Part shown: in pieces, positions 9,035 through 62,224 of the stretch
Numbering within the stretch: position 1 is the first letter of the stretch
Layout of the letters: each line of letters begins with the position of its first letter
DNA from: a virus
Lineage: Duplodnaviria; Heunggongvirae; Uroviricota; Caudoviricetes
Length of the DNA stretch: 64,000 nucleotides
IMG/VR virus record: IMGVR_UViG_3300034105_002625
Location: 25,437 to 89,436 of that record
Direction: 5' to 3' (one strand)
Made by a program: the position numbers and the translations under genes
Notes under the pieces: model-generated
What the model saw: only the letters and a program-made list of their open reading frames with translations
Databases searched by the model: none
What the model was told of the DNA's origin: nothing

Positions 9035-9038
9035 TATG

Positions 9039-11166: not shown

Positions 11167-11196
11167 CAAAAATTTTATCCAATAAAAATAAAAGTT

Positions 11197-36602: not shown

Positions 36603-36647
36603 GGGGAGGGGGCGTCAAAACCTCCTCACCGAAGGTGTCACGCGCAA
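36603..36647. repeat. GC-rich conserved element copy 1 (GGGGAGGGGGCG … CTCACCGAAGGTGTCACGCGCAA)
   Basis: two blocks identical to copy at 62133-62175; strongly GC-rich in an AT-rich genome. Confidence 0.6.
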
Positions 36648-36668
36648 AATTAACCAATTAACAAACAT

Positions 36669-37040
36669 ATGACAATTTTAACATCATTTATTCTAGTAGT
36701 AGCTATCACAGCAATAGCTCTATTCATTGCATACAATGTGCAAAAAGGTACAAAAACCTTAAAAGAATTTAAAACAGACTTCGATAACAACGAGGAAGCT
36801 CAAGAGTTAGTACAGTTATCTAAAGAATTGTATAACAAAGACCTACGTCCAGTTACAGCAAAGAAAGCACCTAAGAAAGAAAAGGTAGCAGAAATAACAC
36901 CAGAGGTTGTAGAGAAAGTAGTAGAGATTGCCCAAGTAACACCAGACACTACAACAGTAAACGTTGAAGCAGTAGTGGAATCAACCAAGCCTAAGAAAAA
37001 AAGAAAGTATTATCCAAAAGCTCCTAAGGGGAAGGCATAA
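36669..37040 (+). CDS. membrane-anchored protein
   Basis: 123 aa; N-terminal TM helix, Lys-rich C-terminus. Confidence 0.35.
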   Translation: MTILTSFILVVAITAIALFIAYNVQKGTKTLKEFKTDFDNNEEAQELVQLSKELYNKDLRPVTAKKAPKKEKVAEITPEVVEKVVEIAQVTPDTTTVNVEAVVESTKPKKKRKYYPKAPKGKA

Positions 37041-37294
37041 TGTCAGATTCAAGAGCCAAGTACGAGGAATTAAGAGAGAAGCCTACCTTTGTTGAAAATA
37101 CAGAACAGCAAAGAAGCGTGGCCATTATTGTAGAAATTCTACAGGCAAGTGATCATACCTCTCTCACCAAGCACCTTTTATCAAAAGTGTTAGAAGTATC
37201 AAAGGAGGGTCCAAACCTTTCACCGGCCACTGTCTTTCAAATAGCAGCAGATGCTACAAAGGTAGATGAATTATGCAATGCAAAACAAAACTAA
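37040..37294 (+). CDS. hypothetical protein
   Basis: 84 aa ORF. Confidence 0.3.
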   Translation: MSDSRAKYEELREKPTFVENTEQQRSVAIIVEILQASDHTSLTKHLLSKVLEVSKEGPNLSPATVFQIAADATKVDELCNAKQN

Positions 37295-37532
37295 AATGGA
37301 ACAACAACCAAGAATGAATCTATCGATTGATCAAACACTTCCGGTAGAATGCGAAAAATGTGGACACACCTTCTTTGAAGAAGCACTTCATATTAGAAAA
37401 GCATCGGGAATACTTACAGGTACAGGTCAAACAACCTACATGCCTATTCCGGTATTTGCGTGCAAGGCCTGCGGCCATGTCAACACAGAATTTCTTCCAA
37501 AGGAATTAAAAGGGTTGAATTCTGAGGAATAA
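37266..37532 (+). CDS. zinc-ribbon protein
   Basis: 88 aa; CEKCGH … CKACGH. Confidence 0.3.
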   Translation: MNYAMQNKTKMEQQPRMNLSIDQTLPVECEKCGHTFFEEALHIRKASGILTGTGQTTYMPIPVFACKACGHVNTEFLPKELKGLNSEE

Positions 37533-37553
37533 ACCAGACTTTACTTAAACTTC

Positions 37554-37581
37554 AAAGAGGCCTCGTGCCTCTTTTTTTTGT
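37554..37581 (+). terminator. rho-independent terminator
   Basis: AAAGAGGC-CTCGT-GCCTCTTT hairpin + TTTTTTTT. Confidence 0.55.
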
Positions 37582-37604
37582 GCTATTTATATCAAAGAGT
37601 TACT

Positions 37605-37913
37605 ATGAAAATTTTGTTACTACCAATTAGTTACGTCCTAACTAACTTAAAAAAATATTTTATGGGATTTTTCAGTATCTTTAAAAAATCAAATGATTAC
37701 AATGAAAAGGTTGTAATTGGATTCATGTCATTCATGGTGATGGTAATTGCCATTGCAGTAGACCTTGTAACAGGTTACATGGGTAAAGCTTTAGAATTAA
37801 ACGAGTACATCTTTGATGCATTCATGTACATCACATTAGGTTCATTCCTTCCAGATGTATTGGAGAAATTTGCAGCAATGAAAAACGGAGGTAAATCAAA
37901 CAACGAAGAATAA
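37605..37913 (+). CDS. membrane protein
   Basis: start adjusted to MKILLLPISY; two TM helices. Confidence 0.3.
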   Translation: MKILLLPISYVLTNLKKYFMGFFSIFKKSNDYNEKVVIGFMSFMVMVIAIAVDLVTGYMGKALELNEYIFDAFMYITLGSFLPDVLEKFAAMKNGGKSNNEE

Positions 37914-37923
37914 AAATTAGATT

Positions 37924-38535
37924 ATGAGCTTAAAAAGTTTACAAGAAAAAGTAGGAGTAACAGCCGATGGTGCTTTTGGTCCAGGAACAATGAAAAAAGC
38001 AATGGAGTTTTATAAATTAACTCCAGTAAGAGCAGCACATTTCTTTGCACAAACAGCACACGAAACAGGAGGGTTTAAAGCATTTGCAGAAAATCTAAAC
38101 TACTCAGGAGATGGATTAAAAGGTATCTTTGGAAAATACTTTCCAGGTAACTTAAATGAACTATACGCTCGTAATCCTGAAAAGATTGCCAATAGAGTAT
38201 ACGGATCAAGAATGGGTAATGGAGCAGAAGCTTCAGGAGATGGATACAAGTTCAGAGGAAGAGGAGCTCTTCAATTGACAGGAAAAGAAAACTACAAAGC
38301 ATTTTCAGATTATTTGAAAAAGCCAGAAATCATGACCAATCCAGATCTAGTAGCAACTACTTACTCTTTTGAATCAGCAATGTTCTTTTTTGATAAAAAT
38401 AAATTATGGTCAATATGTGACCAAGGAGTGAACGATGCTTCAATCCTAGCTCTTACAAAAAGAATTAACGGCGGTACTCATGGTTTAGCAGATCGTTCTG
38501 AGAAAACTAAAAAATATTACGAATACGTTAAATAG
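37924..38535 (+). CDS. endolysin (lysozyme-like / GH19 chitinase-like peptidoglycan hydrolase)
   Basis: 203 aa; …HFFAQTAHETGGF… and …RGRGALQLTGKENY… are hallmark motifs of the phage lysozyme/chitinase-like family. Confidence 0.7.
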   Translation: MSLKSLQEKVGVTADGAFGPGTMKKAMEFYKLTPVRAAHFFAQTAHETGGFKAFAENLNYSGDGLKGIFGKYFPGNLNELYARNPEKIANRVYGSRMGNGAEASGDGYKFRGRGALQLTGKENYKAFSDYLKKPEIMTNPDLVATTYSFESAMFFFDKNKLWSICDQGVNDASILALTKRINGGTHGLADRSEKTKKYYEYVK

Positions 38536-38546
38536 GTAAATATAAG

Positions 38547-38972
38547 ATGAAAACTTCACTATTAATCACATTATCATTGACAACAGCATTAGCATTTATT
38601 GGTACATATTTTATGCACCTAACAGCAGATAACATCGAACAATACCTTTCAGTAGGGTTGGTTGTCTTTGCTGATGGCTTCTTTGGTATATGGGCAGGAG
38701 TTAAGAGAGAAGGTTTTCAGACTTTTAAAGCATTAAGCGTATTAAAAACATTTGGCTTTTGGGTAGTAATGCTATCAGCTATCTTATCAATAGAAAAAGG
38801 ATTTACTGGAACAGCTTGGTTAAGCGAGACTATTATGGCTCCCTTCTTAGTATTCCAGTTAATTTCTATTTTAAAAAATGCCTCAATGGTAGGTTTAGTA
38901 AAAAATGAATTAGCAGTTCAGATATTGGACAGACTAGATAAACACAAAGGAGAAAGAGATGTTACAGAATAA
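38547..38972 (+). CDS. holin-like membrane protein
   Basis: 141 aa with 3-4 TM helices immediately after endolysin. Confidence 0.4.
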   Translation: MKTSLLITLSLTTALAFIGTYFMHLTADNIEQYLSVGLVVFADGFFGIWAGVKREGFQTFKALSVLKTFGFWVVMLSAILSIEKGFTGTAWLSETIMAPFLVFQLISILKNASMVGLVKNELAVQILDRLDKHKGERDVTE

Positions 38973-39312
38973 ACAAAACTTATTACTGGTTATAGTAGTT
39001 GTATTAATTGGTTATAATATTTTCAATACAAATAGCATCAGAACAGATGTAAAAGGGTACAAAGCTGAAATAGAATTATTACAAACTAAAGTAGATTCAG
39101 CTAAGACAGTAAACAAACAAATCGATACTAAAATCGATTCAGTAAAAGAAAAGGTAGTTTCTATTTCAAAAGAAATACATCACATAGACAATACAATAAC
39201 AATCGTAAAAAATCAAACAAATGAAAAAGCTGCTAATGCTGGTAAGTTTTCTAATGTTGAGCTTGAGCAGTTTTTCGCAAGCAGATACAACAAAAGTCTT
39301 ACTCCCAACTAA
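38959..39312 (+). CDS. spanin-like protein (N-terminal TM + coiled coil)
   Basis: 117 aa; TM then coiled-coil. Confidence 0.3.
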   Translation: MLQNKQNLLLVIVVVLIGYNIFNTNSIRTDVKGYKAEIELLQTKVDSAKTVNKQIDTKIDSVKEKVVSISKEIHHIDNTITIVKNQTNEKAANAGKFSNVELEQFFASRYNKSLTPN

Positions 39313-39616
39313 AATTGCTAGACAAGTTGCAAAAGACCTTATTAGGTATGATGGTTGCAAACAAGAACTAAAACTTACTCAAGAAAAAATTATCAAGTTA
39401 GAAGAAAGAGAAGTACAAAAAGATACTATCATCAAGCTTCTAAACGATAAGGATGAGAACAATAAATACATCATTCATCAGAATGAACTTCAAATTGGAC
39501 AGTACGAACATATGACTGACGATTTACAAAAAGAGTTAAAGGCCTCTAGAACAAAAACCTTCCTCTATAAAGTAGGAACATTTGTCGGATTGGCATTAGC
39601 ACTCTACCTCTACTAA
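39221..39616 (+). CDS. spanin-like / lipoprotein (signal peptide, coiled coil, C-terminal TM), embedded/overlapping previous ORF
   Basis: 131 aa; MKKLLMLVSFLMLSLSSFSQ signal; overlaps 38959-39312 in another frame as in i-/o-spanin pairs. Confidence 0.3.
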   Translation: MKKLLMLVSFLMLSLSSFSQADTTKVLLPTKIARQVAKDLIRYDGCKQELKLTQEKIIKLEEREVQKDTIIKLLNDKDENNKYIIHQNELQIGQYEHMTDDLQKELKASRTKTFLYKVGTFVGLALALYLY

Positions 39617-39629
39617 AATAATTAAATTA

Positions 39630-39656
39630 AGGCTTGCTTTTGCAGGCCTTTTTTCT
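39630..39656 (+). terminator. rho-independent terminator
   Basis: AGGCTTGC-TTTT-GCAGGCCT hairpin + TTTTTT. Confidence 0.55.
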
Positions 39657-39671
39657 TATATTATAGTTATA
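39654..39671 (+). promoter_or_regulatory. promoter box variant TTCTTATATTATAGTTAT
   Basis: 12 nt upstream of ATG 39683. Confidence 0.35.
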
Positions 39672-39682
39672 TAAAATACGTT

Positions 39683-39973
39683 ATGACAAAGAACAGTGAT
39701 GTAAAACCTTTAGTAAAAGAGAAGGTTGTAAACAAAATGGTCGACCATCCTCAACACTACGGAGGTAAGGGAAACAAATACGAAGCCATAAAAGTAATTG
39801 AAGCATGGGACTTAGGTTTCTGTTTAGGAAATACTGTGAAGTATATCTCCAGAGCAGGAAAGAAAGATAACATAGTTCAAGAATTAGAAAAAGCTCTTTG
39901 GTATTTAAAAAGAGAAATCAAAACACTAAAGAAAAATGGCCAAGAAAATACTCAAGCAGGTAAGTCTAATTAA
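39683..39973 (+). CDS. DUF3310-family phage protein
   Basis: 96 aa; HPQHYGG…IEAWDLGFCLGNTVKYISRAGKK matches the DUF3310 signature. Confidence 0.5.
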   Translation: MTKNSDVKPLVKEKVVNKMVDHPQHYGGKGNKYEAIKVIEAWDLGFCLGNTVKYISRAGKKDNIVQELEKALWYLKREIKTLKKNGQENTQAGKSN

Positions 39974-40877
39974 GGACTTCTGCAATCCAGTTATAGATTA
40001 TAACATCAGCAAATCAATATCGTATAGTCAAACTCTAGCATACAATACTTGTCCGCACCAATGGGCATTAAAATATGTTAAAGGACTGCAGGAGTATAAG
40101 CCCTCCATTCATACAGTCTTTGGAACAGCCTTACACGAAGTTGTACAGGAATGGCTAACAGAACTCTATGAAGGGACTGTAAAGAAAGCAACTGAGATGG
40201 ATCTTGGAGCACTTCTACATGAAAAGCTCTTTAGTATTTATGCTCAAGAAAAAGATAAGTACGGAAAACATTTCTCTACCTCTGAGCAGTTATCTGAGTT
40301 TCATAATGATGGAGTTGAAATATTGAATTACGTACGTAAGAAACGCTCTATTTACTTCGGTACCAAGTATTATAAGTTGGTAGGAGTAGAGATTCCTTTG
40401 ATACATCAAATAGCTGAGAATATTTTCTTCAAAGGATTTATTGATATTGTTCTCTATGATGAGCAGGATGACAGGTATATCATTTTAGATATCAAAACAT
40501 CAACCTCAGGATGGAATGATTATGCAAAGAAGGATGATAAAAAGCTAGCACAATTACTTCTCTATAAAGAATTCCTAGCAAGACAATTTGATATAGATGT
40601 TGATAAGGTAGATGTAAAGTACTTCATCGTAAAGAGAAAAGTACCTGCCGATCCAGAATATCCAGCCATGGGTAGAAGAGTTCAAGAGTTTGTACCACCT
40701 TCAGGAAAAATTAAAAGAGGACAAGCAACCACAGCTCTTACAAAATTTATTGACGATGCTTTCGATTCACATGGAAAGTATATTGATAAGGAATATGATA
40801 AGAAGCCATCCAAGTCCAATTGTATGTTCTGTGATTTTAAAGGTACAGAGCATTGCCATGCAGGTGTTTTGATATAA
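39936..40877 (+). CDS. PD-(D/E)XK nuclease, Cas4/RecB-like with C-terminal Cys cluster
   Basis: 313 aa; GFIDIVLYDE…ILDIKTS (D…D/E-x-K core); C-terminal CMFCDFKGTEHCH; N-terminal Cys. Confidence 0.6.
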   Translation: MAKKILKQVSLIKDFCNPVIDYNISKSISYSQTLAYNTCPHQWALKYVKGLQEYKPSIHTVFGTALHEVVQEWLTELYEGTVKKATEMDLGALLHEKLFSIYAQEKDKYGKHFSTSEQLSEFHNDGVEILNYVRKKRSIYFGTKYYKLVGVEIPLIHQIAENIFFKGFIDIVLYDEQDDRYIILDIKTSTSGWNDYAKKDDKKLAQLLLYKEFLARQFDIDVDKVDVKYFIVKRKVPADPEYPAMGRRVQEFVPPSGKIKRGQATTALTKFIDDAFDSHGKYIDKEYDKKPSKSNCMFCDFKGTEHCHAGVLI

Positions 40878-40912
40878 GGGTATATTTATATATACATATA
40901 ATTATATAAACA

Positions 40913-41095
40913 ATGAACACAAAAAAATTAACATCGGTTAAGGTAGAAGAGGATCTTCTACAAGAATTTAAAGAGCAATGCGTAAGAGATAAATTTTCTT
41001 TACAGAAGCTTGTAGACAGAGCAATTTTTCTTTATATTACAGAAGAGAGCTTTAAACAAAAATTACGCACACAAACAGATATTAAATTAAAATAG
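40913..41095 (+). CDS. small ribbon-helix-helix-like protein
   Basis: 60 aa ORF. Confidence 0.25.
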   Translation: MNTKKLTSVKVEEDLLQEFKEQCVRDKFSLQKLVDRAIFLYITEESFKQKLRTQTDIKLK

Positions 41096-41099
41096 TTAC

Positions 41100-42542
41100 A
41101 TGAAAGAAAAATTTCGTTATGTTAAGAAAGAAGATCGTAAAAAGATACTTCTGTTATGCGATGATATTAGGATGCATTCCGGTATCGCAACGATGGCTAG
41201 AGAGATTGTTGTAGGAACATCTCATCACTTTAACTGGATCAATCTAGGAGCTGCAATTAACCACCCCGAAGCAGGAAAAGGATTTGACATCTCAGGAGAG
41301 GTTAATAGGTTAACAGGGCTAGAAGATTCAGATGTAAAGGTATTGCCTAACAATGGTTATGGAGATGCTATGCAAATTAGAGCTTTAATTGCACAAGAAA
41401 AGCCAGATGCTATTTTTATCTTTACAGATCCAAGGTACTGGGTATGGTTATTTGAAATAGAAAGAGAGATTAGAAATGAAATTCCTTTGATGTACTTAAA
41501 CATTTGGGATGACTATCCAGCTCCTCTTTATAACAAACCGTACTACGAGTCATGTGATTTGTTAATGGCAATCTCAAAACAAACTAAAAATATTAATGAA
41601 ATAGTTTTAGGAGAAGCAGTTGAGAATAAGATTTTAAAATATGTTCCTCATGGAATAAATGAAGAGCACTTCTTTCCAATGACCTCAGTAGATCAACTTG
41701 AGACTTTAGGTCAATTTAAAAAAGACTTATTTCAAGGAAAGGATATCGAATTCGTAGCATTCTTCAATTCAAGAAACATCAGAAGAAAATCTCCAGGAGA
41801 TGTAATTCTATCTTATAGAATGTTCTGTGATTTAATCGGAGAAGAGAAAGCTAAGAAATGTGCTTTAGTAATGCACACACAGGCTGTAGATGAAAACGGT
41901 ACAGACCTTTATGCAGTAAGAGAAGCAATTTGTGATGAGAGTTATGTAAATGTATTCTTCTCACAAGAGAGATTAGATACTCCACAAATTAATTTACTTT
42001 ATAACATAGCTGATGTAGGATTGCTTATCACTTCAAATGAAGGATGGGGATTATCTCTAACTGAGACTATGATGGCAGGTAAAATGATCATAGCCAACGT
42101 AACAGGCGGTATGCAAGATCAAATGAGATTTACAGATGAGAATGGTGAGTGGATTAACTTCACTCCTGACTTCCCTTCTAACCATAGAGGTACTTATAAA
42201 GAGCATGGAGAGTGGGCAGTGCCTGTCTATCCTTCAAACATCTCAATGGTAGGTTCAGTTCCAACTCCATACATCTTCGATGATAGGTGTGCACCAGAAG
42301 ACGTAGCTAAAGCTTTAGAAGAGGTTTACAACATGGGGAAAGAAGAGAGAGATAGAAGAGGATTATTAGCTAGAGAATGGGTAACATCAGATGAATCAGG
42401 AATGTCAGCACGTCAAATGTGTACAAACGTTATTGATGCAATGGATGAGACATTTGAAAAGTTTACTCCAAGATCTAGATTTGACCTATATAAAGTAACA
42501 GACAGACCAAAAAAATATATCACACATAAATTAATATACTAG
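41100..42542 (+). CDS. glycosyltransferase, GT4-like (GT-B fold)
   Basis: 480 aa; NEGWGLSLTETMMAGKMIIA resembles the E-x-FG…EAMAxGxPVI GT4 donor-binding motif. Confidence 0.55.
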   Translation: MKEKFRYVKKEDRKKILLLCDDIRMHSGIATMAREIVVGTSHHFNWINLGAAINHPEAGKGFDISGEVNRLTGLEDSDVKVLPNNGYGDAMQIRALIAQEKPDAIFIFTDPRYWVWLFEIEREIRNEIPLMYLNIWDDYPAPLYNKPYYESCDLLMAISKQTKNINEIVLGEAVENKILKYVPHGINEEHFFPMTSVDQLETLGQFKKDLFQGKDIEFVAFFNSRNIRRKSPGDVILSYRMFCDLIGEEKAKKCALVMHTQAVDENGTDLYAVREAICDESYVNVFFSQERLDTPQINLLYNIADVGLLITSNEGWGLSLTETMMAGKMIIANVTGGMQDQMRFTDENGEWINFTPDFPSNHRGTYKEHGEWAVPVYPSNISMVGSVPTPYIFDDRCAPEDVAKALEEVYNMGKEERDRRGLLAREWVTSDESGMSARQMCTNVIDAMDETFEKFTPRSRFDLYKVTDRPKKYITHKLIY

Positions 42543-42544
42543 TT

Positions 42545-43831
42545 ATGAGTAAACCTACATTAGTAGTAAGCTGTCCAGTAGACACTTACTCAGGATATGG
42601 AGCAAGAGCAAGAGACTTTGTACAATCAATTATCGATACAGATAAGTACGAAGTAAAGATCCTATCACAAAGATGGGGAGGTACTAGATTTGGATATCTT
42701 AAAGATCATAAGAATGAATCTTTAGCCTCTAGAATTATACCACAACTAACACAACAGCCAGACATCTGGATTCAAATTACAGTACCGAATGAATTTCAAA
42801 AGGTTGGTAAATACAATATTGGACTAACAGCAGGAATTGAAACTACAATCTGTGATCCTTCCTGGATTGAAGGATGTAACAGAATGGACTTAGTATTAGT
42901 ATCAGCACAACATGCTAAGAAAGTATTTGAAGATAGTAAATTCAATATGCAAGATTCAAATACAGGACAAGTAACAGGACAGTTAGCACTTAGTACAAAG
43001 GTAGAAGTTCTATTTGAAGGAGCTGATATAGAGAAGTATGCACCATTGTCATGGCCAGTCACATTAGATCTTTCAACTATACCGGAAATGTTCTGCTTCC
43101 TAACAGTAGGTCACTGGCTTCAGGGGTCTCTTGGAGAGGATAGAAAGAATATTGGATACACTATTAAAGCATTCTTAGAAACATTTAAGAATAAAAAAGA
43201 TCAACCGGCACTTATTTTAAAAGTACAAGCAGGAGCAGGAACCTCTATCATGGATAGGGAAGCAGTGTTGGATAAAATTGATGCAATCAGAAAGACAGTA
43301 AAGGGAAAGTTACCAAACATTTACGTACTACATGGAGAAATGTCTGATGCTGAAGTAAATGAACTATACAACCACGGTAAGGTAAAGGCGATGATCTCTT
43401 TAACAAAAGGAGAAGGATTTGGAAGACCTCTACTAGAATTTAGTTTAATAAACAAACCAATCATAGCTTCAGGATGGTCAGGGCATATTGACTTCCTTGA
43501 TAATCGATATACAAAACAAATAGGAGGAACTCTTACAAACGTACATCCATCAGCAGCTGTAGACAAAATGATCTTACAAGAAAGCCAGTGGTTTACACCA
43601 GACGATGCTCTTGTAGGAAAAGCTCTTAAGGATGTATTTGAGGATTATAAACCATATAAGGAATTAGCCAAAAGACAGGGGTATAAGAGTAGAACTGAGT
43701 TCTCGTATGATAAGATGAGAGAGACGCTAGATACTCTTCTAACACAGTACATTCCTGAATTCCCTAAGCAAGTACAGTTAAAGTTACCTCAACTTAAGAA
43801 AATAGAACTACCAAAATTAACTAAAATATAA
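42545..43831 (+). CDS. glycosyltransferase, GT4-like (GT-B fold)
   Basis: 428 aa; GEGFGRPLLEFSLINKPIIASGW matches GT4 motif. Confidence 0.6.
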   Translation: MSKPTLVVSCPVDTYSGYGARARDFVQSIIDTDKYEVKILSQRWGGTRFGYLKDHKNESLASRIIPQLTQQPDIWIQITVPNEFQKVGKYNIGLTAGIETTICDPSWIEGCNRMDLVLVSAQHAKKVFEDSKFNMQDSNTGQVTGQLALSTKVEVLFEGADIEKYAPLSWPVTLDLSTIPEMFCFLTVGHWLQGSLGEDRKNIGYTIKAFLETFKNKKDQPALILKVQAGAGTSIMDREAVLDKIDAIRKTVKGKLPNIYVLHGEMSDAEVNELYNHGKVKAMISLTKGEGFGRPLLEFSLINKPIIASGWSGHIDFLDNRYTKQIGGTLTNVHPSAAVDKMILQESQWFTPDDALVGKALKDVFEDYKPYKELAKRQGYKSRTEFSYDKMRETLDTLLTQYIPEFPKQVQLKLPQLKKIELPKLTKI

Positions 43832-44289: not shown

Positions 44290-44291
44290 AT

Positions 44292-44308
44292 TTCTTATCT
44301 TAATAGGA
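44292..44308 (+). promoter_or_regulatory. promoter box TTTCTTATCTTAATAGG abutting ATG (leaderless candidate)
   Basis: box ends at ATG 44308. Confidence 0.35.
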
Positions 44309-44925: not shown

Positions 44926-44932
44926 ATTAGTT

Positions 44933-46243: not shown

Positions 46244-46244
46244 T

Positions 46245-48081: not shown

Positions 48082-48108
48082 ATAACATAAAAAGATAATT
48101 TTATAAAG

Positions 48109-54212: not shown

Positions 54213-54230
54213 GTTACATATATACATACA

Positions 54231-55508
54231 ATGGAAAATTCAATTAGTTTTTGCATCAATACAGCAGTAGATGAACTACCTTATTTAAAACTACTAATGA
54301 AGTCGTTAAAAGAAAATCTTAAGTACGACCACCACGAGGTAATTGTGTTTGTTGATTCTGATAATCAAAAAACCTTCGAATGGCTGACTACTCAAAAGTT
54401 AGAGTTTAAGAATCTAAAAATACTTAAAAACATACTCCCAGTATGTTATGGCCCTATTAGGAATATAAATGAAATGTTTAAATTTGCTTCTCATGAAATA
54501 GTTTCTTACCTACAGTCTGATATGGTTGTTTCTAGAAACTATGATGAGTATCTCTTAAAGCATATTAAACCTAATACGATACTATCTAGCACTAGAATTG
54601 AACCACCACTACATGGACCAGGTCCTGAGAAGCATACTGTGAACTTTGGACTAACTCCCTCTGAGTTTGATTATGAGGGGTTTTTAAACTACTGTGACAT
54701 ATGTAGAGAAGATAAAACAACAAGTTACTATTTTGCACCATTTACTTTATATAGAGAGATTTGGAACACTATAGGAGGGCAAGACAACACCTTTAGACGG
54801 TCAAGAGATGACTCTGATATTTTAAATAGGTTTATACTTTCAGGAGTAGAGATTGTTCAAACATGGGAAGCACTGGTATACCATTTTACTTGTACTTCTA
54901 GTAGAGGACCGGGCTGGCATGAGCCAAGTAATACAAAGGCACAGGAAAAGTTACAACTCCAAGCAAGAGCAGATAAGGTAGAACTTACTAGAATATTTAG
55001 AAAGTGGGGAGAATTTAGCCATGGACATCCAACACCGTACTACTATAATATAGTCTCAGAAATTAATATAGATATAGATATAGGTAACTTAGAGTTATTT
55101 AAAAACGTTGAGATGTTTTTTATAAAAAACTACATAACTTCTAAAAAACTATATAACGAGTTTATAAATGAGAATGAACATCTATATGCTAATATACTTT
55201 ACAAGTACTCTCAAGAACAGTGGGAGGAGTACAAGTACATGTGCAACATAGAGAGATTAGAGGATAGAGTTTGTATAGGAGAACCAGAAGGAGATGTGGT
55301 AGTTTCATTTAACCTTAGTAGTATTAACCAAAATACATTTAATAATGTACTAAGTAAGTTACAACACATAATACACGAAGCAGAACCAGGTGATTATGAA
55401 TTCGAAGGATTTACTTTCTCAATAAAGAACAAAGAGAATATTATAGAGACTAAACTTAAAGTAAACAATCCTGATATAAAACCAGAACATCTATATAAGG
55501 TATACTAG
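54231..55508 (+). CDS. putative glycosyltransferase (GT2-like N-terminal domain) with C-terminal extension
   Basis: 425 aa; SFCINTAVDE… N-terminus; HEVIVFVDSD (DxD-like). Confidence 0.4.
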   Translation: MENSISFCINTAVDELPYLKLLMKSLKENLKYDHHEVIVFVDSDNQKTFEWLTTQKLEFKNLKILKNILPVCYGPIRNINEMFKFASHEIVSYLQSDMVVSRNYDEYLLKHIKPNTILSSTRIEPPLHGPGPEKHTVNFGLTPSEFDYEGFLNYCDICREDKTTSYYFAPFTLYREIWNTIGGQDNTFRRSRDDSDILNRFILSGVEIVQTWEALVYHFTCTSSRGPGWHEPSNTKAQEKLQLQARADKVELTRIFRKWGEFSHGHPTPYYYNIVSEINIDIDIGNLELFKNVEMFFIKNYITSKKLYNEFINENEHLYANILYKYSQEQWEEYKYMCNIERLEDRVCIGEPEGDVVVSFNLSSINQNTFNNVLSKLQHIIHEAEPGDYEFEGFTFSIKNKENIIETKLKVNNPDIKPEHLYKVY

Positions 55509-55535
55509 AAAATAAACTATTTATAACAAAAACAT

Positions 55536-55886
55536 ATGAGCTTAATCAACGAAATAAAAGAGATGCTATCAGAAGTTACCAAAGTAAACTTCAAAGGAAA
55601 TAAATTTGTCCTTAAGATAGATGTAAATGAAGATCCAAATAAGAAAGGAATTAAAGTACAATTCCTTCCAACAACATTCTCAGGTATGTCTAAACAACAA
55701 CAAGACGATATCGCTATGGACTTAGGAGCTAAATTAAATCAAGGATTAGCACCTCTAGGGTTAGCAGTAGAGAGAGACAGAGAGTTAAAGGATAAGACAA
55801 TTGTAGGCTTCTTTATCTATATCGAATATCTAGATAAGATTATTATCAATGCTCTAAATCAAGCAGCACAAACAAGTAACGACTAA
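55536..55886 (+). CDS. hypothetical protein
   Basis: 116 aa ORF. Confidence 0.3.
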   Translation: MSLINEIKEMLSEVTKVNFKGNKFVLKIDVNEDPNKKGIKVQFLPTTFSGMSKQQQDDIAMDLGAKLNQGLAPLGLAVERDRELKDKTIVGFFIYIEYLDKIIINALNQAAQTSND

Positions 55887-55897
55887 ATAAAAAAGAT

Positions 55898-56110
55898 ATG
55901 CCACAGTTTTGTTTTTATTCAAAGAATAACCCTACACAAGAACCAGTAGGAGTTCTACACGCAGCAAGTAGAGAAGAAGCAATAAAATTCTTCTCATTGT
56001 CAAAACAATTATCAACAAATGATTTTCTAACAATTTTCGAAGTAAAAAACTATACGTATGGAGCTCAAGAAGGAATTAAGGAAAACGCTAAACAATTACT
56101 TAAAGGGTAA
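55898..56110 (+). CDS. hypothetical protein
   Basis: 70 aa ORF. Confidence 0.25.
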   Translation: MPQFCFYSKNNPTQEPVGVLHAASREEAIKFFSLSKQLSTNDFLTIFEVKNYTYGAQEGIKENAKQLLKG

Positions 56111-56456
56111 TATTAGGATAAAAGAAAGAGATATGGCTAGAGATACAATGGAAAAGAAACTTTTTATCGAAAGCATAATCCTTTTAAGAGAGATAGAAGA
56201 TAGAAGAGACTTTATGGAGGAAGAGATTGGAATGGATATGTCTATGTATGAAGAGAAGTTCTTACAGATTATAGAGAATCTATTTAAAGTTCATTTTACA
56301 AAAGAACAATTTGCTTTAATACAATACTACCTATATAAAGTTCCGGAGATTGAAGATTGGGATGGAAAGATTGATATTACAGACGGAAAGGAAATGATTA
56401 CTGTTGACTTTGAAACTCCTGATCAAGTATGGAATGTTATATCCAGCTTAAAATAA
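56058..56456 (+). CDS. hypothetical protein
   Basis: 132 aa ORF. Confidence 0.3.
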   Translation: MELKKELRKTLNNYLKGNIRIKERDMARDTMEKKLFIESIILLREIEDRRDFMEEEIGMDMSMYEEKFLQIIENLFKVHFTKEQFALIQYYLYKVPEIEDWDGKIDITDGKEMITVDFETPDQVWNVISSLK

Positions 56457-56467
56457 ATAAGAAAATA

Positions 56468-56504
56468 GTTGCTAGATAAGACTATTGTTCGTATATTTAG
56501 GTAT
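56468..56504 (+). promoter_or_regulatory. promoter (GTTGCTAG + TTCGTATATTTAGGTAT)
   Basis: bipartite motif with 20-nt spacing; 22 nt upstream of ATG 56526. Confidence 0.55.
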
Positions 56505-56525
56505 AAATAATAAATTAAAACGGTT

Positions 56526-56933
56526 ATGAGCTTAGAACAAATTAAATGTACAAGGTGTAGGAATGATATGCCTAAACTTAGATTGGACAATTACGGATAC
56601 GATTTCTGTATAGAATGTTCAGATGTAAAGCCTAAGGTAGGACGTATTAGAGTAGTTGGGGAAGGAGACTATACAGTCACTGAACTTGATATCTTAGACC
56701 AGGATACAGCTAGAAGACTTCAAGAGCTGGAGAATACCTCTAGAGGAGTTAGAAATGTTCCATTAGAGATCTTAAACTTTGATGAGGATGAAATGTCTGA
56801 CGACAGTAGAGCAATCTCAGAAGCTACAGACAAAGCATTAGAAGGTGAATTAGAAGTCTTAGATGATGAAGAAGACTTAGAAGACCTAGAAGATGTTGAA
56901 GATGTAGAGCTTGAAGACGAAGACGACGAATAG
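56526..56933 (+). CDS. zinc-finger protein with acidic C-terminal tail
   Basis: 135 aa; CTRC…CIEC; D/E-rich tail. Confidence 0.3.
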   Translation: MSLEQIKCTRCRNDMPKLRLDNYGYDFCIECSDVKPKVGRIRVVGEGDYTVTELDILDQDTARRLQELENTSRGVRNVPLEILNFDEDEMSDDSRAISEATDKALEGELEVLDDEEDLEDLEDVEDVELEDEDDE

Positions 56934-57587
56934 ATGCCACCACCAAAATTCATATCGAAAGATGATTGCTTAAGAGCAATGCAAAATACTAGAAGTAACC
57001 GAGGAGCAGCTCGGTTTCTTCGATGTAGCTTTGTACACTATAAGAAGTATGCTAGAACGTATGTTAATGATCAAGGAGTAACTCTATGGGAGGCTCATAA
57101 GAATCAATCAGGCATAGGTATTCCTAAATATCTTCCTAACAAAGGTAAGCAAGCACCTCTTAAAGAATTGATTGAAGGGAAGATATCAGTAGCTTCTTTT
57201 GAGCCGGCTAAGATCAAACAGAGATTAATCTTTGAAGGCTATTTAAAAGAGGAATGTAATCGATGTGGCTTTCATGAAGAGAGAGTAACAGATCATAAGA
57301 TACCTTTGATACTTCAATTTAGAGATAAGAACAAAGTCAACTACGAGCTTTCTAATATAGAGCTTATGTGTTACAATTGCTCTTTCCTATACTCTGTATC
57401 ACCTATCACCGATAGACAAGTAGCAGCAGCAGAGGATTCTGTAGACAGACAAGTAAGAGATTTTGATTGGGAGGTAGATGATGCAATGAAAGAGCATTTA
57501 GAATCATTAGGACTTTGGAATGAAGTACCAACAGATGGTTCACAATACATCTCAGAAAACTATAAAGGGAATGAAAAAGAAGACTAA
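56934..57587 (+). CDS. HNH-like endonuclease candidate
   Basis: 217 aa; CNRCGFHEERVTDHKIPL…CYNCS resembles an HNH/Zn-finger core. Confidence 0.35.
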   Translation: MPPPKFISKDDCLRAMQNTRSNRGAARFLRCSFVHYKKYARTYVNDQGVTLWEAHKNQSGIGIPKYLPNKGKQAPLKELIEGKISVASFEPAKIKQRLIFEGYLKEECNRCGFHEERVTDHKIPLILQFRDKNKVNYELSNIELMCYNCSFLYSVSPITDRQVAAAEDSVDRQVRDFDWEVDDAMKEHLESLGLWNEVPTDGSQYISENYKGNEKED

Positions 57588-57698
57588 GCCCTCTAGGGAG
57601 AGAATTGTAGCTAACAAGCTTGTCAAACAATCTGAACAGAATGAAAAGCTGAGAGAGAAAACAATTAGTAATTCTTTTTGGAAATTATTTAGGAAATA

Positions 57699-57735
57699 GT
57701 TGCTAGAACAAACCTTTGTTCGTATATTTAGGTAT
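57699..57735 (+). promoter_or_regulatory. promoter (GTTGCTAG + TTCGTATATTTAGGTAT) fused to start codon (leaderless candidate)
   Basis: box ends 57735; ATG at 57734 lies inside GGTATGG. Confidence 0.5.
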
Positions 57736-58060
57736 GGAAAAAACAGGTGCAACAGTAAAGAAGCTTCATGACTTTAATACCTCAGGAGTATTAGAAGTAT
57801 GTATAAAAGGTAACTGGTATAGGACTACTTGTAATGATTTTAGATCATTCGATGGTAAGAGAAGAATAACTGAGCCAATCAAACAGCCAGGTATAGGGGA
57901 TAGTTTTAATGATATAGAATTTAAGACCTATGACTATAACGGTCCAGTATATGTTCTTCAAACAAACTTAGAAGTAATCAGAATGGATACAGAGACAATT
58001 GTAACTAATCCATATATTGAATCAACACAAAAATCTTTACCTAACAGCAATCGTATATGA
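57734..58060 (+). CDS. hypothetical protein (start adjusted from TTG 57716 to ATG 57734)
   Basis: MEKTGATVKKLHDF…; ORF-track start lies inside the promoter box. Confidence 0.35.
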   Translation: MEKTGATVKKLHDFNTSGVLEVCIKGNWYRTTCNDFRSFDGKRRITEPIKQPGIGDSFNDIEFKTYDYNGPVYVLQTNLEVIRMDTETIVTNPYIESTQKSLPNSNRI

Positions 58061-58353
58061 AAAAATTAGTATTCAGATCCACAGATGAATTCTCAGAATT
58101 CTTTAAAGGAAAGAGCCCAGAGCTTACAAATGCAATAGTACATTCTATAAGAGAGGCTTTCATGTTTCATAAGAAGACAGCCAATCTATTTGAGATTACT
58201 TTTGATGAGAGTGATTCCGTATTTGAAATATCGCTATCGCATAAGGAATGGATAATAGCATTAGAGAATTGTCTTTCTCACTATGAGGAGTGGGAGATGG
58301 GAGACGACGCAATAGATACATTTTTATTAATTAAAGAAATAAAAACATGGTAA
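58057..58353 (+). CDS. hypothetical protein
   Basis: 98 aa ORF. Confidence 0.3.
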   Translation: MKKLVFRSTDEFSEFFKGKSPELTNAIVHSIREAFMFHKKTANLFEITFDESDSVFEISLSHKEWIIALENCLSHYEEWEMGDDAIDTFLLIKEIKTW

Positions 58354-58601
58354 AGCCTTATACTAAAACATTTACATGTGATATCACAGGAATTATAACG
58401 ACCTACACTTACAACGGTGCTAGCATTGTAAATGGTATCATAAAAGCAGAGTTCGAATATCCTAAAGAATACTTAGATGAATTCAATAAAAAGGAAAAAA
58501 GACAGAGTAATCTTCCGAAAACAAAACAAATGTTCTTAAATCCTGCAACAGGAAAAGAAGTGGGATATTACAGAGCTAAGAATTTAGGCCTTGTAAAATA
58601 A
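58347..58601 (+). CDS. hypothetical protein
   Basis: 84 aa ORF. Confidence 0.3.
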   Translation: MVKPYTKTFTCDITGIITTYTYNGASIVNGIIKAEFEYPKEYLDEFNKKEKRQSNLPKTKQMFLNPATGKEVGYYRAKNLGLVK

Positions 58602-58623
58602 ATTAAAAAAAGTTTGTATATTA

Positions 58624-58660
58624 GTTGCTAGAACGAATCTTTGTTCGTATATTTAGGTAT
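58624..58660 (+). promoter_or_regulatory. promoter (GTTGCTAG + TTCGTATATTTAGGTAT)
   Basis: identical box and downstream AGAAATCAATTAAAAA leader as at 61793. Confidence 0.55.
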
Positions 58661-58685
58661 AGAAATCAATTAAAAACAATAAGTT

Positions 58686-59510
58686 ATGTTAGCAAAATTC
58701 AACACAGGTTTAGATTCTTACCTTTCAAAAGATCAAGTAAAAGCTTTAGCACCAGTAGCATTCGCTACAGCACCAACAAGTGATAAAGTTAGTAAGGATT
58801 ACTTACTAGTAAATACTGAGACTATCATCGATGACTTAGAAAAGTTAGGATGGCTTCCAGTTACAGCCTCTCAAAGAAAGGCTAGAAAGTCTGAAAAGGC
58901 TACAATCTTCTCCAAGCACATGGTATCCTTTCAGAATCCAGATCTTATGATCAAGGGTAAGAATGGTGATGATGCTTTTCCAAGAATCATTTTAACGAAC
59001 TCCCATGATGGATTTAATTCTTTTCAGTTTAGAATTGGAATCTACAGATTGGTATGTTCAAATGGATTGGTAGTAGCTGACGAGGAATTCTCAGCATTCA
59101 GAATACGTCACACAGGATATACCTTCGAAGAATTAAGAGGAGTAGTAGCACAAGCAGTAGCTGATCTTCCTAATAAGGTAATGATTTTAAATCAAATGCA
59201 GTTGAGAGAATTGTCTCCGGTAGAGCAAAGACAATTGGCTATCGATGCAATGCAATTGAGAACAAATAGAATCGATGCTGAATGGGATGAAGAGACTATC
59301 CAGGACGTTTTAACTCCTACAAGAGATGCTGATAAAGGAAATGACCTTTGGAAAGTATTTAATGTAATCCAAGAGAAGATTACTCAAGGAGGATATTCAG
59401 CAGCATTGAATGGTGCTAAAGTAAGAAAGGTTAGAAAGATTAAATCATTCGAGAAAGATCTAGAGGTTAATCAAAAGCTATTCAAATTAGCTACAGCATT
59501 GATCAACTAA
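58686..59510 (+). CDS. DUF932-family phage/plasmid protein
   Basis: 274 aa; size and N-terminal pattern consistent with the DUF932 family. Confidence 0.4.
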   Translation: MLAKFNTGLDSYLSKDQVKALAPVAFATAPTSDKVSKDYLLVNTETIIDDLEKLGWLPVTASQRKARKSEKATIFSKHMVSFQNPDLMIKGKNGDDAFPRIILTNSHDGFNSFQFRIGIYRLVCSNGLVVADEEFSAFRIRHTGYTFEELRGVVAQAVADLPNKVMILNQMQLRELSPVEQRQLAIDAMQLRTNRIDAEWDEETIQDVLTPTRDADKGNDLWKVFNVIQEKITQGGYSAALNGAKVRKVRKIKSFEKDLEVNQKLFKLATALIN

Positions 59511-59749
59511 TGGATAGAGAGAAATATCTACAGATGAGAAGAACTGGCCAATATGACCTTGGCTGGTTCTATCAATACTACCTAGAGCATAAGGATAAGG
59601 ATAGAATGACTCCTCCCTTTGAAGCTTTTCATCAGGCCTTTAATATGTACTTCCAAATGCATGGAGGTTTTATTCTAGACTATATGGATAAGAAAATGGA
59701 AGTAACTAAAATAGAAAACGAACAAGGAAATTTAATTTATATAAACTAA
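59510..59749 (+). CDS. hypothetical protein
   Basis: 79 aa ORF. Confidence 0.3.
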   Translation: MDREKYLQMRRTGQYDLGWFYQYYLEHKDKDRMTPPFEAFHQAFNMYFQMHGGFILDYMDKKMEVTKIENEQGNLIYIN

Positions 59750-59750
59750 A

Positions 59751-59993
59751 ATGGCAGAAGGCAAAGTAAAAACACCAAAGGAATTGATGGCAGACTTAAA
59801 AGGAAATTACATTCAAGTAATTAAAAAGAACGGAAAGACTCATGATAAGCTCTATAAAGATCCTCAGAGAGCGATTAGAGGAGTAGGAGGAGTTGATAAT
59901 GTAAAATACCTTAGAGAGGTTCTTAAAGAGCAAGTCAATTCAAGATACGTAGAAGTAGATTCATTAACCGGAACACCAGAAAACGAATTATAG
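59751..59993 (+). CDS. hypothetical protein
   Basis: 80 aa ORF. Confidence 0.3.
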   Translation: MAEGKVKTPKELMADLKGNYIQVIKKNGKTHDKLYKDPQRAIRGVGGVDNVKYLREVLKEQVNSRYVEVDSLTGTPENEL

Positions 59994-59995
59994 TT

Positions 59996-60199
59996 ATGGA
60001 AAAATTAGGAATAGTATTAGCAGCATTTGGAATGCTAGTTGTAGTAGCGATTTTATTAGCATGGCCAACACAATGGCTTTGGAATAACGCTTTAGTAGGA
60101 GCAGCAGATGGATTTAATCCAATTGGCTTTTGGCAAGCATTAGGAATTAATATCCTATGTGGAATTTTATTTAGAAATAATAACTCAAGTTCAAAGTAA
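59996..60199 (+). CDS. small membrane protein
   Basis: 67 aa, TM helix. Confidence 0.3.
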   Translation: MEKLGIVLAAFGMLVVVAILLAWPTQWLWNNALVGAADGFNPIGFWQALGINILCGILFRNNNSSSK

Positions 60200-60432
60200 T
60201 GAAGACAGTTATTAAAGTTTTAGTAGGATTTTTCCTAGGATTAGGATTAGTTCAGTTAGTAGATCTAGGAATGTATCTGCTGAATAGGCCAGATAGTTAT
60301 CTATTCAACTTAGGAGTATTGATACTTGGAATAGTATTTGTAGCATTTGGATTCTTAGGATTGTATATAATGAAAATAATCAAGCCTGAGGAAGAAGTAA
60401 AAGAAGAGGTTAAACAGGAAAAAGAAGAATAG
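60199..60432 (+). CDS. small membrane protein
   Basis: 77 aa, two TM helices. Confidence 0.3.
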   Translation: MKTVIKVLVGFFLGLGLVQLVDLGMYLLNRPDSYLFNLGVLILGIVFVAFGFLGLYIMKIIKPEEEVKEEVKQEKEE

Positions 60433-60434
60433 TT

Positions 60435-60824
60435 ATGGTAGTATTATTAGTAATATTAATTGTAGGCTTATTAGTTTTAGGAATTATAGAAACTGTTACA
60501 GCATTTGATTTAGGATCTCCAATCTCAGACAAAGACATCTCAGATTATTTAGATAGAATTGAAAATGAAAATCTTATAAATGGAATAACTTTAAGATGGA
60601 ATGACAAATATGTTCTTAATGTAAAAGGGTATACAATTAGACATCATAGTAATCCTTCCATTTATCAAACACAGTACTCTATTATATTTCCATATTATAT
60701 CACTGATGTAGGAGTAATTCCAATATGGAGTAAATCTTATAGTAGAGTTAAGAAGTTATTTAAAGATAACATTGAAAATTCTAGTTATAGAACAGATAAA
60801 AGAAAAAAATTAGGGCTAGAATAG
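60435..60824 (+). CDS. membrane-anchored protein
   Basis: 129 aa; N-terminal TM. Confidence 0.3.
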   Translation: MVVLLVILIVGLLVLGIIETVTAFDLGSPISDKDISDYLDRIENENLINGITLRWNDKYVLNVKGYTIRHHSNPSIYQTQYSIIFPYYITDVGVIPIWSKSYSRVKKLFKDNIENSSYRTDKRKKLGLE

Positions 60825-60860
60825 TTGCCTCCTAAGAATATATTTCATATATTTAGGTAT
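60824..60860 (+). promoter_or_regulatory. promoter (GTTGCCTC + TTCATATATTTAGGTAT)
   Basis: bipartite motif variant upstream of SPFH gene. Confidence 0.45.
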
Positions 60861-60904
60861 AATAATAAACAATTAATTATAAATCAAATTTAAACAAAGA
60901 AGTT

Positions 60905-61741
60905 ATGAACAGAATTTTAGTAGCAGTAGGATTAATCCTAGTAGTTTTTGCAGTAACCATGTCATGTGAGAACATTGACTCAGGTAACATTGGTATCAAA
61001 GTAAACAAGTTTGGTACAGGAAGAGGGGTAAGTGGAGTAACAGAGTGTACAGGTACAGTCTTTTATAATCCAATCACAACAAACATCTTTGAATTTCCAA
61101 TCAATATTCGTCATAAAGAGTATACTGACGAAGGATCATTTGTAGTGAATAGTAAAGATGGATCAGAGTTTCATGTTAGTCCAATTGTCAACTATAGAAT
61201 TAATCCAGATAAAGCCACACAGATCTTTGCAAAATATAGAAAAGACTTAGATGGTATTGAGAATGGATTCCTTAAGACAGCAGTAACAGAAGCATTTAGA
61301 ATCGTTACCAATGGCTATACAGCTGATCAATTAATCTCAAGTAGAGAAGCATTTGATAATAAAGTAAAAGCTACATTAAGAAAACAATTAGAGCCAGAAG
61401 GATTTGTATTGGATCAATTTACAACTAATCTAGAATATCCTACATCATTCAAGAATGCTATTAATGCTAAGAATAATGCAGTACAGAAGGCTTTAATGGC
61501 TGAGAATAGAGTTAAACAAGCAGAGGCTGAAGCAAAGATTAAAGTAGCAGAAGCAGAAGGAGATGCTCAATCAACACTTACAAGAGCAAGAGCTGAATCA
61601 GAAGCAAATACTTTAAAGCAGAGAACATTAACTCCAATGCTATTGCAACAACAATGGATTGAAGCATGGAGAAAAGGTGGATCTAAAGTACCTCAGTATA
61701 TTACAAGCGGTGGAGGAAACTTCATGATGACTATAAAATAG
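60905..61741 (+). CDS. SPFH / band-7 (prohibitin/stomatin-like) membrane protein
   Basis: 278 aa; N-terminal TM; SPFH-domain-like core then Ala/Glu-rich coiled coil. Confidence 0.65.
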   Translation: MNRILVAVGLILVVFAVTMSCENIDSGNIGIKVNKFGTGRGVSGVTECTGTVFYNPITTNIFEFPINIRHKEYTDEGSFVVNSKDGSEFHVSPIVNYRINPDKATQIFAKYRKDLDGIENGFLKTAVTEAFRIVTNGYTADQLISSREAFDNKVKATLRKQLEPEGFVLDQFTTNLEYPTSFKNAINAKNNAVQKALMAENRVKQAEAEAKIKVAEAEGDAQSTLTRARAESEANTLKQRTLTPMLLQQQWIEAWRKGGSKVPQYITSGGGNFMMTIK

Positions 61742-61768
61742 TAAAATATATTAAAAATAATTGATAAA

Positions 61769-61793
61769 AGAGTTGCTAGCGCAGCTCTTTTTT
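61769..61793 (+). terminator. rho-independent terminator overlapping the next promoter's -33 element
   Basis: AGAGTTGC-TAGC-GCAGCTCT hairpin + TTTTTT. Confidence 0.55.
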
Positions 61794-61809
61794 CGTATAT
61801 TTAGGTATA
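61793..61809 (+). promoter_or_regulatory. promoter box TTCGTATATTTAGGTAT
   Basis: perfect box; ATG at 61833. Confidence 0.5.
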
Positions 61810-61832
61810 GAAATCAATTAAAAATAAAGGTT

Positions 61833-62009
61833 ATGAAAGTACAAGATTTAAAAGCAGGTGATAAGTTTAAGATGAATGGACTATCAGTAAGCGGTAAGCA
61901 GACTAAGGTTAAATGTGAAATGATCCGATACAATGGAATGGATAAGTACGTTGTAGTATGCCAGGGTATTAGTATACTGGTAGATGGTACTGATGAAGTA
62001 TTTGTATAA
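61833..62009 (+). CDS. hypothetical protein (start adjusted to ATG 61833)
   Basis: MKVQDLKAGDKF…; ORF-track start lies inside the promoter. Confidence 0.3.
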   Translation: MKVQDLKAGDKFKMNGLSVSGKQTKVKCEMIRYNGMDKYVVVCQGISILVDGTDEVFV

Positions 62010-62132
62010 CTAGAGGATAAGAGCTATGACAGAAGAAGAATTACAAGTACTGCTTGATGAGGAAGAGACTTACATCAACGAATGGAGAGATAGTTTAACG
62101 CAAGAGCAGATTGATTCGATTTAAGAACGAAG

Positions 62133-62175
62133 GGGAGGGGGCGCAAGACTACTCACCGAAGGTGTCACGCGCAAT
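62133..62175. repeat. GC-rich conserved element copy 2 (GGGGAGGGGGCG … CTCACCGAAGGTGTCACGCGCAA)
   Basis: matches copy at 36603-36647; followed by hairpin CCTCCA-GGTTGT-TGGAGG. Confidence 0.6.
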
Positions 62176-62224
62176 TTCTCCCAACCCTCCAGGTTGTTGG
62201 AGGTAAAATCTAAATAAAAACTAT

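Follow-up and report, generated by a model that had tools for sequence, protein, structure and literature searches.

A conserved two-hairpin element, apparently of the structured-RNA type, in T4-like Flavobacterium phages

The locus and its two copies

The stretch of phage DNA considered here – 64,000 nt from a member of the Caudoviricetes (IMG/VR record IMGVR_UViG_3300034105_002625, positions 25,437 to 89,436), referred to below as the window – contains two copies of a short GC-rich element on its + strand, each lying just past the stop codon of a short open reading frame (ORF). The window is collinear with, and ~76–87% identical to, the genome of Flavobacterium phage vB_FspM_immuto (hereafter immuto), a 160-kb T4-like myovirus. 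Comparison across related phages shows the element to behave as a phage-specific, sense-strand motif of the structured-RNA type, under strong purifying selection.

Copy 1 follows a + strand ORF for a 55-amino-acid, Hc1 histone-like protein (36422-36589), whose stop codon precedes the G-tract of the element by 13 nt and whose product matches Pfam Hc1 just below the cut-off (E = 1e-4); the arrangement of Hc1 ORF and copy 1 is orthologous in immuto. The next ORF on the same strand (36669-37040, 123 amino acids) starts 21 nt after the element, and its product has an N-terminal hydrophobic stretch, taken as a membrane segment by eye, while its immuto orthologue carries the annotation of a FliL-like flagellar basal body-associated protein. 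Copy 2 follows a 32-amino-acid ORF (62026-62124, + strand; stop codon 7 nt before the G-tract) and lies 50 nt ahead of an 84-amino-acid ORF with a DUF7352 domain (62225-62479, + strand; E = 1.8e-23). Neither intergenic gap contains the standard early promoter box, so that an earlier note on this DNA was right both about the flanking ORFs and about the missing promoter.

That note had also claimed two copies of one GC-rich sequence, and both are real. Copy 1 (36603-36647) consists of the G-tract GGGGAGGGGGCG (36603-36614), the spacer tcaaaacctc and the 23-mer CTCACCGAAGGTGTCACGCGCAA (36625-36647), its coordinates being as first given; copy 2, which had been placed one nucleotide too far downstream (62133-62175), occupies 62132-62174, with the same G-tract (62132-62143) and 23-mer (62152-62174) on either side of the spacer caagacta. 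The exact 23-mer has two matches in the window, and still two when up to three mismatches are allowed; it appears in 0 of 100 shuffles, with 0 expected by chance. The 12-mer G-tract taken alone is weaker evidence, giving at least two matches at up to two mismatches in 9 of 100 shuffles.

The surrounding DNA has a GC content of 0.31–0.41 (~0.34 overall) and is strongly depleted of CpG (observed/expected 0.46). The tetranucleotide CGCG occurs only three times in the 64 kb, twice in the tails of the element and once in a tRNA. Avoidance of a restriction site was considered as an explanation of this rarity and rejected, as a Markov model predicts 4.3 occurrences against the 3 observed; the rarity follows from the general CpG depletion and therefore carries no separate signal. 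The window contains no sequence complementary to the tail that might act as a trans-acting seed.

Fold and covariation

In copy 1, the predicted fold comprises two hairpins and a single-stranded tail, all on the + strand. Hairpin P1 (36603-36626) is formed by the G-run (36603-36612) and the CU-run CCTCCT (36621-36626) around the loop CGTCAAAA (36613-36620), with the covariation-supported pairs starting from G-run positions 36607-36612; hairpin P2 (36627-36637) reads CACC-GAA-GGTG, that is, 4 bp with a C-GAA-G triloop; and the near-invariant tail (36638-36651) reads T-CACGCGC-AAAATT. In copy 2 (also + strand), the G-run GGGGAGGGGG is followed by CGC and a degenerate internal partner, AAGACTACT (62132-62153), the internal CU-run being mostly gone, as the mismatched pairs flagged in the covariance-model alignment indicate. 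Its P2 (62154-62164) has the same CACC-GAA-GGTG sequence, its tail (62165-62177) reads T-CACGCGC-AATTT, and an extension (62178-62203) adds the C-rich tract CTCCCAACCCTCC and the sequence GGAGG (62199-62203). This tract, which is kept together with the extension in loci of type 2, has two possible partners: the 5′ G-run, in a predicted long-range stem, or GGAGG, in a CCTCC/GGAGG hairpin.

Across the aligned copies, the G-run of P1 consists of purines only and its CU-run of pyrimidines only, and the two are paired in 89% of cells; double-sided changes occur in four of its six pairs, strand flips are almost absent and two positions are mostly G.U. P2 directly abuts P1 as a hairpin of 4–5 bp with an invariant C-GAA-G triloop, and is paired in 100% of cells where present, with compensatory changes in three of four pairs. 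Its stems include CACC/GGUG, CUCC/GGAG, CGAC/GUCG, CGACC/GGUCG, CGCC/GGCG, CAAC/GUUG, GCAC/GUGC, AACC/GGUU and CCCC/GGGG, all of which keep the GAA loop. None of 500 shuffles reached the covariation score of the whole structure, and sliding the partner strands lowered that score to about one-third. Although the covariation alignment was model-fitted, the P2 swaps can be read directly from the raw sequences. The inverted repeat that had been pointed out at CACC-GAA-GGTG is thus a genuine, covarying helix. The G-quadruplex proposed for the G-tract is not borne out: it would need four G-runs, and the tract has two (G4 A G5), which make up the 5′ strand of a covarying helix.

A separate observation touches on the same question at the level of DNA. 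Between 30.7 and 37.3 kb, a segment collinear with ~24.8–32 kb of the window, immuto encodes QueC, QueD, QueE, QueF, FolE and the DNA transglycosylase DpdA; the phage DNA therefore probably carries 7-deazaguanine, which argues against G-quadruplex or Hoogsteen structures forming in DNA at the G-run.

The tail is near-invariant and unpaired, with the consensus N-CACGCGC followed by A(1–3)U(3–4). Among the 93 distinct copies collected (see below), 74% have a T-run of at least three within 12 nt after the tail, against a background of 17%, and 44% have one of at least four, against 4%; some copies reach U5–U7. The orientation of the signal is equally clear. Compared with shuffled sequences, the + strand of the two copies folds with z = -2.1 and -2.4 and the - strand with z = +0.5 and -2.0, such that only the + strand folds better than the shuffles for both; the G.U-rich helix exists on the sense strand only; and all credible copies (E < ~0.1) lie on the gene strand. 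This sense-strand fold, its compensatory changes and its conservation above that of the flanks support the earlier suggestion of a cis-acting structured RNA or regulator-binding site.

Some further pairings were considered. A long single hairpin (conformer A), in which P1 is extended by GGGG:CACC and a lower ACC:GGU stem, is thermodynamically favoured for copy 1 (-21.6 versus -12.6 kcal/mol); it was rejected as the conserved fold, as changes in the P2 stem leave 15 cells unpaired with no compensation, and is possible as a lineage-specific alternative. A contact between loop and tail (GCG:CGC), which would make a pseudoknot, is also possible from the sequences: both sides are almost invariant and show no covariation, and the loop GCG is absent in ~7 of 54 copies. 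Small self-cleaving ribozymes (HDV-like, twister, pistol and hammerhead) gave neither an Rfam match nor conserved cores, and the HDV-like, pistol and twister folds, mapped by hand, were discarded because their topologies misfit; nothing in the element could serve as a P2 strand lying between the counterparts of P1 and P3.

Distribution among phages

IMG/VR was scanned with exact or degenerate patterns, and more loci were fetched via two neighbouring proteins. The element is present in 167 fetched phage loci, corresponding to 93 distinct sequences, and the IMG/VR phage contigs that bear it are of low GC content (0.31–0.43). In more than 100 related phage contigs it is conserved far above its flanks, so that the claim of a real element clearly survives the comparison with relatives by which it could have fallen. 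When 185,579 species genomes of bacteria and archaea were scanned, 64 matches came up, all of them chance matches in high-GC genomes but one; the exception, a low-GC contig of a metagenome-assembled genome, is phage-like and probably a phage. It follows from these results that the element is phage-specific. An origin in the host, or mimicry of a CRISPR repeat, was accordingly rejected, as no bacterial genome gave a true match.

With a covariance model, the window yields exactly two copies, and so does the complete immuto genome (42423-42505 and 64734-64805), where they are syntenic with those of the window. Two copies per genome are typical, at least three (and up to four) being found in a few, and the copies of a single genome are less alike than orthologues are. 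The structural-gene half of the 160-kb immuto genome contains no match to the model and, with only two copies elsewhere, a late-promoter element – one of the roles suggested earlier – is not supported, and nor is a middle promoter. That the copies bound a mobile or invertible 25-kb module is contradicted by the collinearity of the 36–62-kb region with immuto and by the synteny of both sites. A homing or recombination target, suggested as well, is possible, and no evidence for it was found.

More distant relatives have, at their Hc1 locus, a degenerate form of the element that has lost P2 and kept P1 and the tail; in one locus (L387) a canonical intrinsic terminator takes its place at the orthologous site, behind the Hc1 gene; and relatives further removed lack the element. 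The type-2 copy of immuto itself has no P2.

The element is new to Rfam and previously undescribed. At the gathering score, the whole window gives only tRNAs in Rfam; relaxing the search to E up to 10 brings up, at both sites, nothing beyond chance matches to small nucleolar and long non-coding RNAs; and 15 related loci give no match. A literature search on immuto phages found nothing on the element. The window also carries an array of 18–19 tRNA genes (7271-11167).

Placement in other phages

In most loci the upstream stop codon lies 6–22 nt before the G-run and the next ATG 14–67 nt after the tail, yet the element is found in at least 12 different genomic contexts. In some phages it lies inside a conserved small ORF or gene tail, as ...LKGWGFDMxxL-[element]-...EEEWCxYGGxPSPxAY (for example ...KGEGAFLSPPKVPRAFS... 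in L137, ...RESEGALSSLDRRSPRAIS... in L223 and ...RGRGRLSLSTEGATRKFS... in L046). Among these in-ORF copies all three reading frames are used through the element, yet the peptide motifs on either side are kept in frame; selection must therefore act on the nucleic acid rather than the protein. The homologous protein of immuto has no such insertion.

The EEEWCxYGGxPSPxAY motif ends a protein family of 182–250 amino acids with no Pfam match, further recognisable by FGGxYFG...DDPYGWFEWYCKY..GRR; its members include L223 3001-3747, L145 14858-15415 (immuto26A_117) and L137 8167-8881. In L223 the element lies in frame within the family gene, whereas in L137, L213 and L229 the C-terminal part forms a separate, overlapping small ORF. 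This gene is missing from the type-2 locus of the window.

Several further contexts, independent of one another, have a canonical terminator 10–20 nt past the element and then a new standard promoter. Other phages have a conserved ORF-free region of 350–630 bp behind the element, then a terminator hairpin and a standard promoter. This region (L137 8790-9240; also in L213, L214, L215, L216, L218, L222, L223, L225, L229 and L230, and in the further loci L046, L038, L098 and L090, with no counterpart in the window) contains the blocks GTGTCTGAGGTAGTGTA.GACTTTGGCTA and AAGCCTATTAATAATA, several TATATA units 10–12 bp apart, and TGTATAGAATAAA. It has no Rfam match, and RNAalifold on a gappy MAFFT alignment gave no consensus fold; it could be a novel large non-coding RNA or an origin-like iteron region. 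The tract AATTTCTCCCAACCCTCC-loop-GGAGG that follows copy 2 (62173-62203) resembles the first helix of the region in relatives, as in L046 (AAATTCTCCAACCTTCCTACC...GGAGA), and may be a vestige of it.

In type-1 loci (L348, L349, L355, L363, L364, L367 and L368) an extra hairpin is present or absent before the next start codon. It has a C-rich 5′ arm and a G-rich 3′ arm (such as CACCCGCCC-AAGGA-CGGGGGGG) and no clear U-run after it – at most UUU, in L363 – and its C-rich arm could pair with the G-run of the element.

Promoters and terminators of the window

The standard early promoter, AGTTGCTAG-N14-TTCGTATATTTAGGTAT, is a repeated cassette of Bacteroidota type. Its box occurs ten times in the window (at 5481, 7214, 10137, 12972, 15646, 56491, 57722, 58647, 60847 and 61795) and nowhere from 15.7 to 56.4 kb; this 40-kb block must therefore use another promoter type or read-through. 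One such promoter (61773-61808, + strand) precedes copy 2 by ~330 nt. Two canonical intrinsic terminators (37554-37582 and 39629-39660), around the endolysin region that comes after copy 1, lie within a string of co-oriented genes without early promoters.

Comparison with known systems

Like intrinsic terminators and leaky attenuators, the element is a stable, GC-rich, sense-strand hairpin structure just past a stop codon, followed by an A/U-rich tract. Unlike them, it has two hairpins and an 8-nt conserved GC-rich spacer (CACGCGC) before a short U-run, its loop and tail are invariant, and transcription evidently continues through many copies. A consensus scan for intrinsic terminators, requiring a GC-rich stem-loop with a U-tract (at least 5 of 8) within 0–2 nt, flags those at 37554 and 39629 and neither copy of the element, whose tails read CACGCGCAAAATT and CACGCGCAATTTC. 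T7 RNase III sites and T4 intercistronic hairpins are likewise phage hairpins between cistrons, and give the mRNA upstream of them a 3′ structure that protects it, but the long continuous hairpin that RNase III would require (here P1 running into CACC and the lower stem) has no covariation support.

The PeSL promoter–terminator cassettes of T4-like phages are conserved regulatory motifs repeated intergenically, at the borders of shuffled gene cassettes (PMC2839356, PMC4122927). The standard promoter boxes of the window look like analogues of PeSL; the element differs in that it carries no promoter, is limited to two copies per genome, folds into two covarying hairpins and is also found inside ORFs. 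A PeSL-type order of stem-loop then early promoter was looked for, and no promoter box lies in or after either copy.

REP and BIME sequences and the RPE of Rickettsia influence mRNA stability and termination. They share with the element the character of GC-rich imperfect palindromes in 3′ untranslated gaps past stop codons, sometimes in frame within genes; they differ in having tens to hundreds of copies and a transposase, where the element has two to four copies at orthologous positions under strong purifying selection. The many copies at non-orthologous sites typical of REP, PATE or MITE families were not found, the two copies in the window and the two in immuto being syntenic, and no Y1/HUH transposase (RAYT/TnpA) is annotated among the 243 immuto features, a negative that covers the annotation only, as the proteins were not searched.

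The nut sites of lambda and put sites of HK022, short cis-acting RNAs with one or more hairpins and a conserved single-stranded box, number two per phage genome and come after promoters and small first genes, all features in which the element may resemble them. Their order of promoter, element and terminators fits copies 1 and 2, whereas in several relatives the order is element, terminator and new promoter. Apart from nut and put, for which the placement points both ways, the element fails the testable defining features of each known system compared.

Alternative readings

If the element worked in the manner of nut or put, its two-hairpin RNA would, with or without a factor, modify RNA polymerase so as to read through downstream terminators or Rho sites. 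Two adjacent hairpins with a conserved single-stranded box, on the sense strand only and in two copies per genome, would suit such processive antitermination. So would the placement of copy 2, ~330 nt past an early promoter and after two mini-ORFs, an order that resembles PR-cro-nutR in lambda; the terminators at 37554 and 39629, within the promoter-less gene string after copy 1; and the long untranslated stretch that follows the element elsewhere and would need protection from Rho. However, several copies directly precede an operon-final terminator and a new standard promoter, where read-through has no obvious purpose, some copies are translated, the sequence resembles neither boxA/boxB nor put, and no N-, Q- or RfaH-like partner was identified, so that we consider antitermination unlikely. 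To much the same degree doubtful is an autonomous protein-binding RNA domain, either a translational operator for the downstream gene or a decoy or sponge (including an anti-defence mimic) that need only be transcribed. Its loop and tail do not vary between phages whose Hc1 proteins share only 65–85% identity, it occurs in many unrelated contexts (intergenic, in-ORF and before terminators), and in most type-1 and 'a' contexts its tail lies 14–32 nt before the next start codon, or up to ~50 nt with the extra hairpin; operators of the T4 RegA/gp32 type have a similar spacing. Many copies, on the other hand, have no start codon for 430–650 nt downstream, the genes that follow are unrelated to one another, no protein partner is known and bacterial genomes hold no counterpart to be mimicked.

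The hairpin might instead be recognised in single-stranded DNA, as a selfish REP/PATE-like element moved by an HUH/Y1 enzyme or as a signal for lagging-strand priming or an origin. Such a reading draws on the variety of contexts (at least 12, including an in-frame insertion into a gene relative to immuto), on the lack of stop codons in any frame of the element unless N = A, on a GC-rich composition foreign to a 34% GC, CpG-depleted genome, and on the C-GAA-G loop, which is an unusually stable DNA mini-hairpin; in addition, all copies lie on one strand, and some adjoin an AT-rich ORF-free stretch with TATATA repeats every 10–12 bp, a possible origin. What makes it quite improbable is that there are two copies per genome (at least three in a few), at orthologous sites in genomes 24% diverged and more divergent within a genome than between orthologues; that the pattern of G-C/G-U/A-U substitutions is an RNA signature, G.T-rich DNA stems being weak; that immuto has no annotated transposase; and that host genomes lack the element. 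A riboswitch-like leader, proposed in the earlier note, is harder still to sustain. In a small pseudoknotted riboswitch, a ligand would stabilise P1 and the loop–tail contact and thereby switch pairings with downstream C-rich or G-rich tracts. The size and the pseudoknot potential (GCG of the P1 loop with CGC of the tail) would fit, extended copies are four-segmented, with a G-run able to pair with an internal or a downstream pyrimidine tract, and the phage group encodes 7-deazaguanine synthesis genes; but Rfam offers no matching family even at E up to 10, the genes on either side have no function in common, ~7 of 54 copies are without the loop GCG, whose proposed contact does not covary, and many copies, including copy 1 of the window, lack the extra segments. 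We regard this possibility as very remote.

A putative transcript punctuation signal

The reading we favour, tentatively and with well under even confidence, is that the element is a factor-recognised punctuation signal that would, where a cistron ends, form an RNA 3′ end or protect one. Its stable hairpins and A/U tail could do so by leaky termination or endonucleolytic processing, an event that would set how much transcription or mRNA passes into the next, promoter-less gene. The invariant GAA loop and CACGCGC tail would serve as the contact surface of a putative conserved factor of host or phage, which might make the termination or processing specific or regulated. In the window, copy 1 would partition the GroES/GroEL/Hc1 genes from the membrane-protein and lysis genes, and copy 2 would partition two promoter-proximal mini-ORFs from the rest of the early operon. 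This reading is suggested by the position after stop codons and the enriched A/U tract, by the terminator that replaces the element in the L387 orthologue and by the frequent adjacency of terminators. As the genes after both window copies have no early promoter of their own, any stop must be leaky.

Several points weigh against transcript punctuation. Neither window copy meets the terminator consensus, the U-run being short and away from the last helix. Transcription must cross the in-ORF copies and those that precede 350–630 nt of promoter-less ORF-free region; a canonical terminator right after the element makes a second 3′-end signal look redundant; and a simple barrier to exonucleases needs no invariant loop and tail. 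P2 is lost in the type-2 copy of immuto and in some type-1 copies, P1 and the tail being kept in the latter, and parts of the element may therefore have separable roles. The binding factor, finally, is putative only.

It is possible, if somewhat more doubtful, that the element represents a new class of phage RNA signal, in which the GAA loop and CACGCGC tail would recruit a factor or RNA polymerase to control the fate of transcripts in Bacteroidota phages, as a portable module able to function in intergenic gaps, within translated ORFs and in front of the conserved 350–630-bp ORF-free locus (a novel large non-coding RNA or an origin).

Significance

The promoters of Bacteroidota and their phages differ from those of Escherichia coli, and their translation initiation is not based on Shine–Dalgarno sequences; to our knowledge, almost no cis-acting RNA signals have been described for Bacteroidota phages. 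The element, with its excellent covariation and wide distribution, appears to be a phage intercistronic RNA signal, and it is among the most conserved sequences of a whole clade of environmental T4-like Flavobacterium phages. Such strong conservation, together with textbook covariation, suggests that it marks a specific, testable interaction between RNA and a factor. The element flags an unannotated conserved non-coding locus in related phages and could supply a compact regulatory part for Bacteroidota, and the identity of its partner would show how these phages partition expression within long, promoter-less strings of genes.

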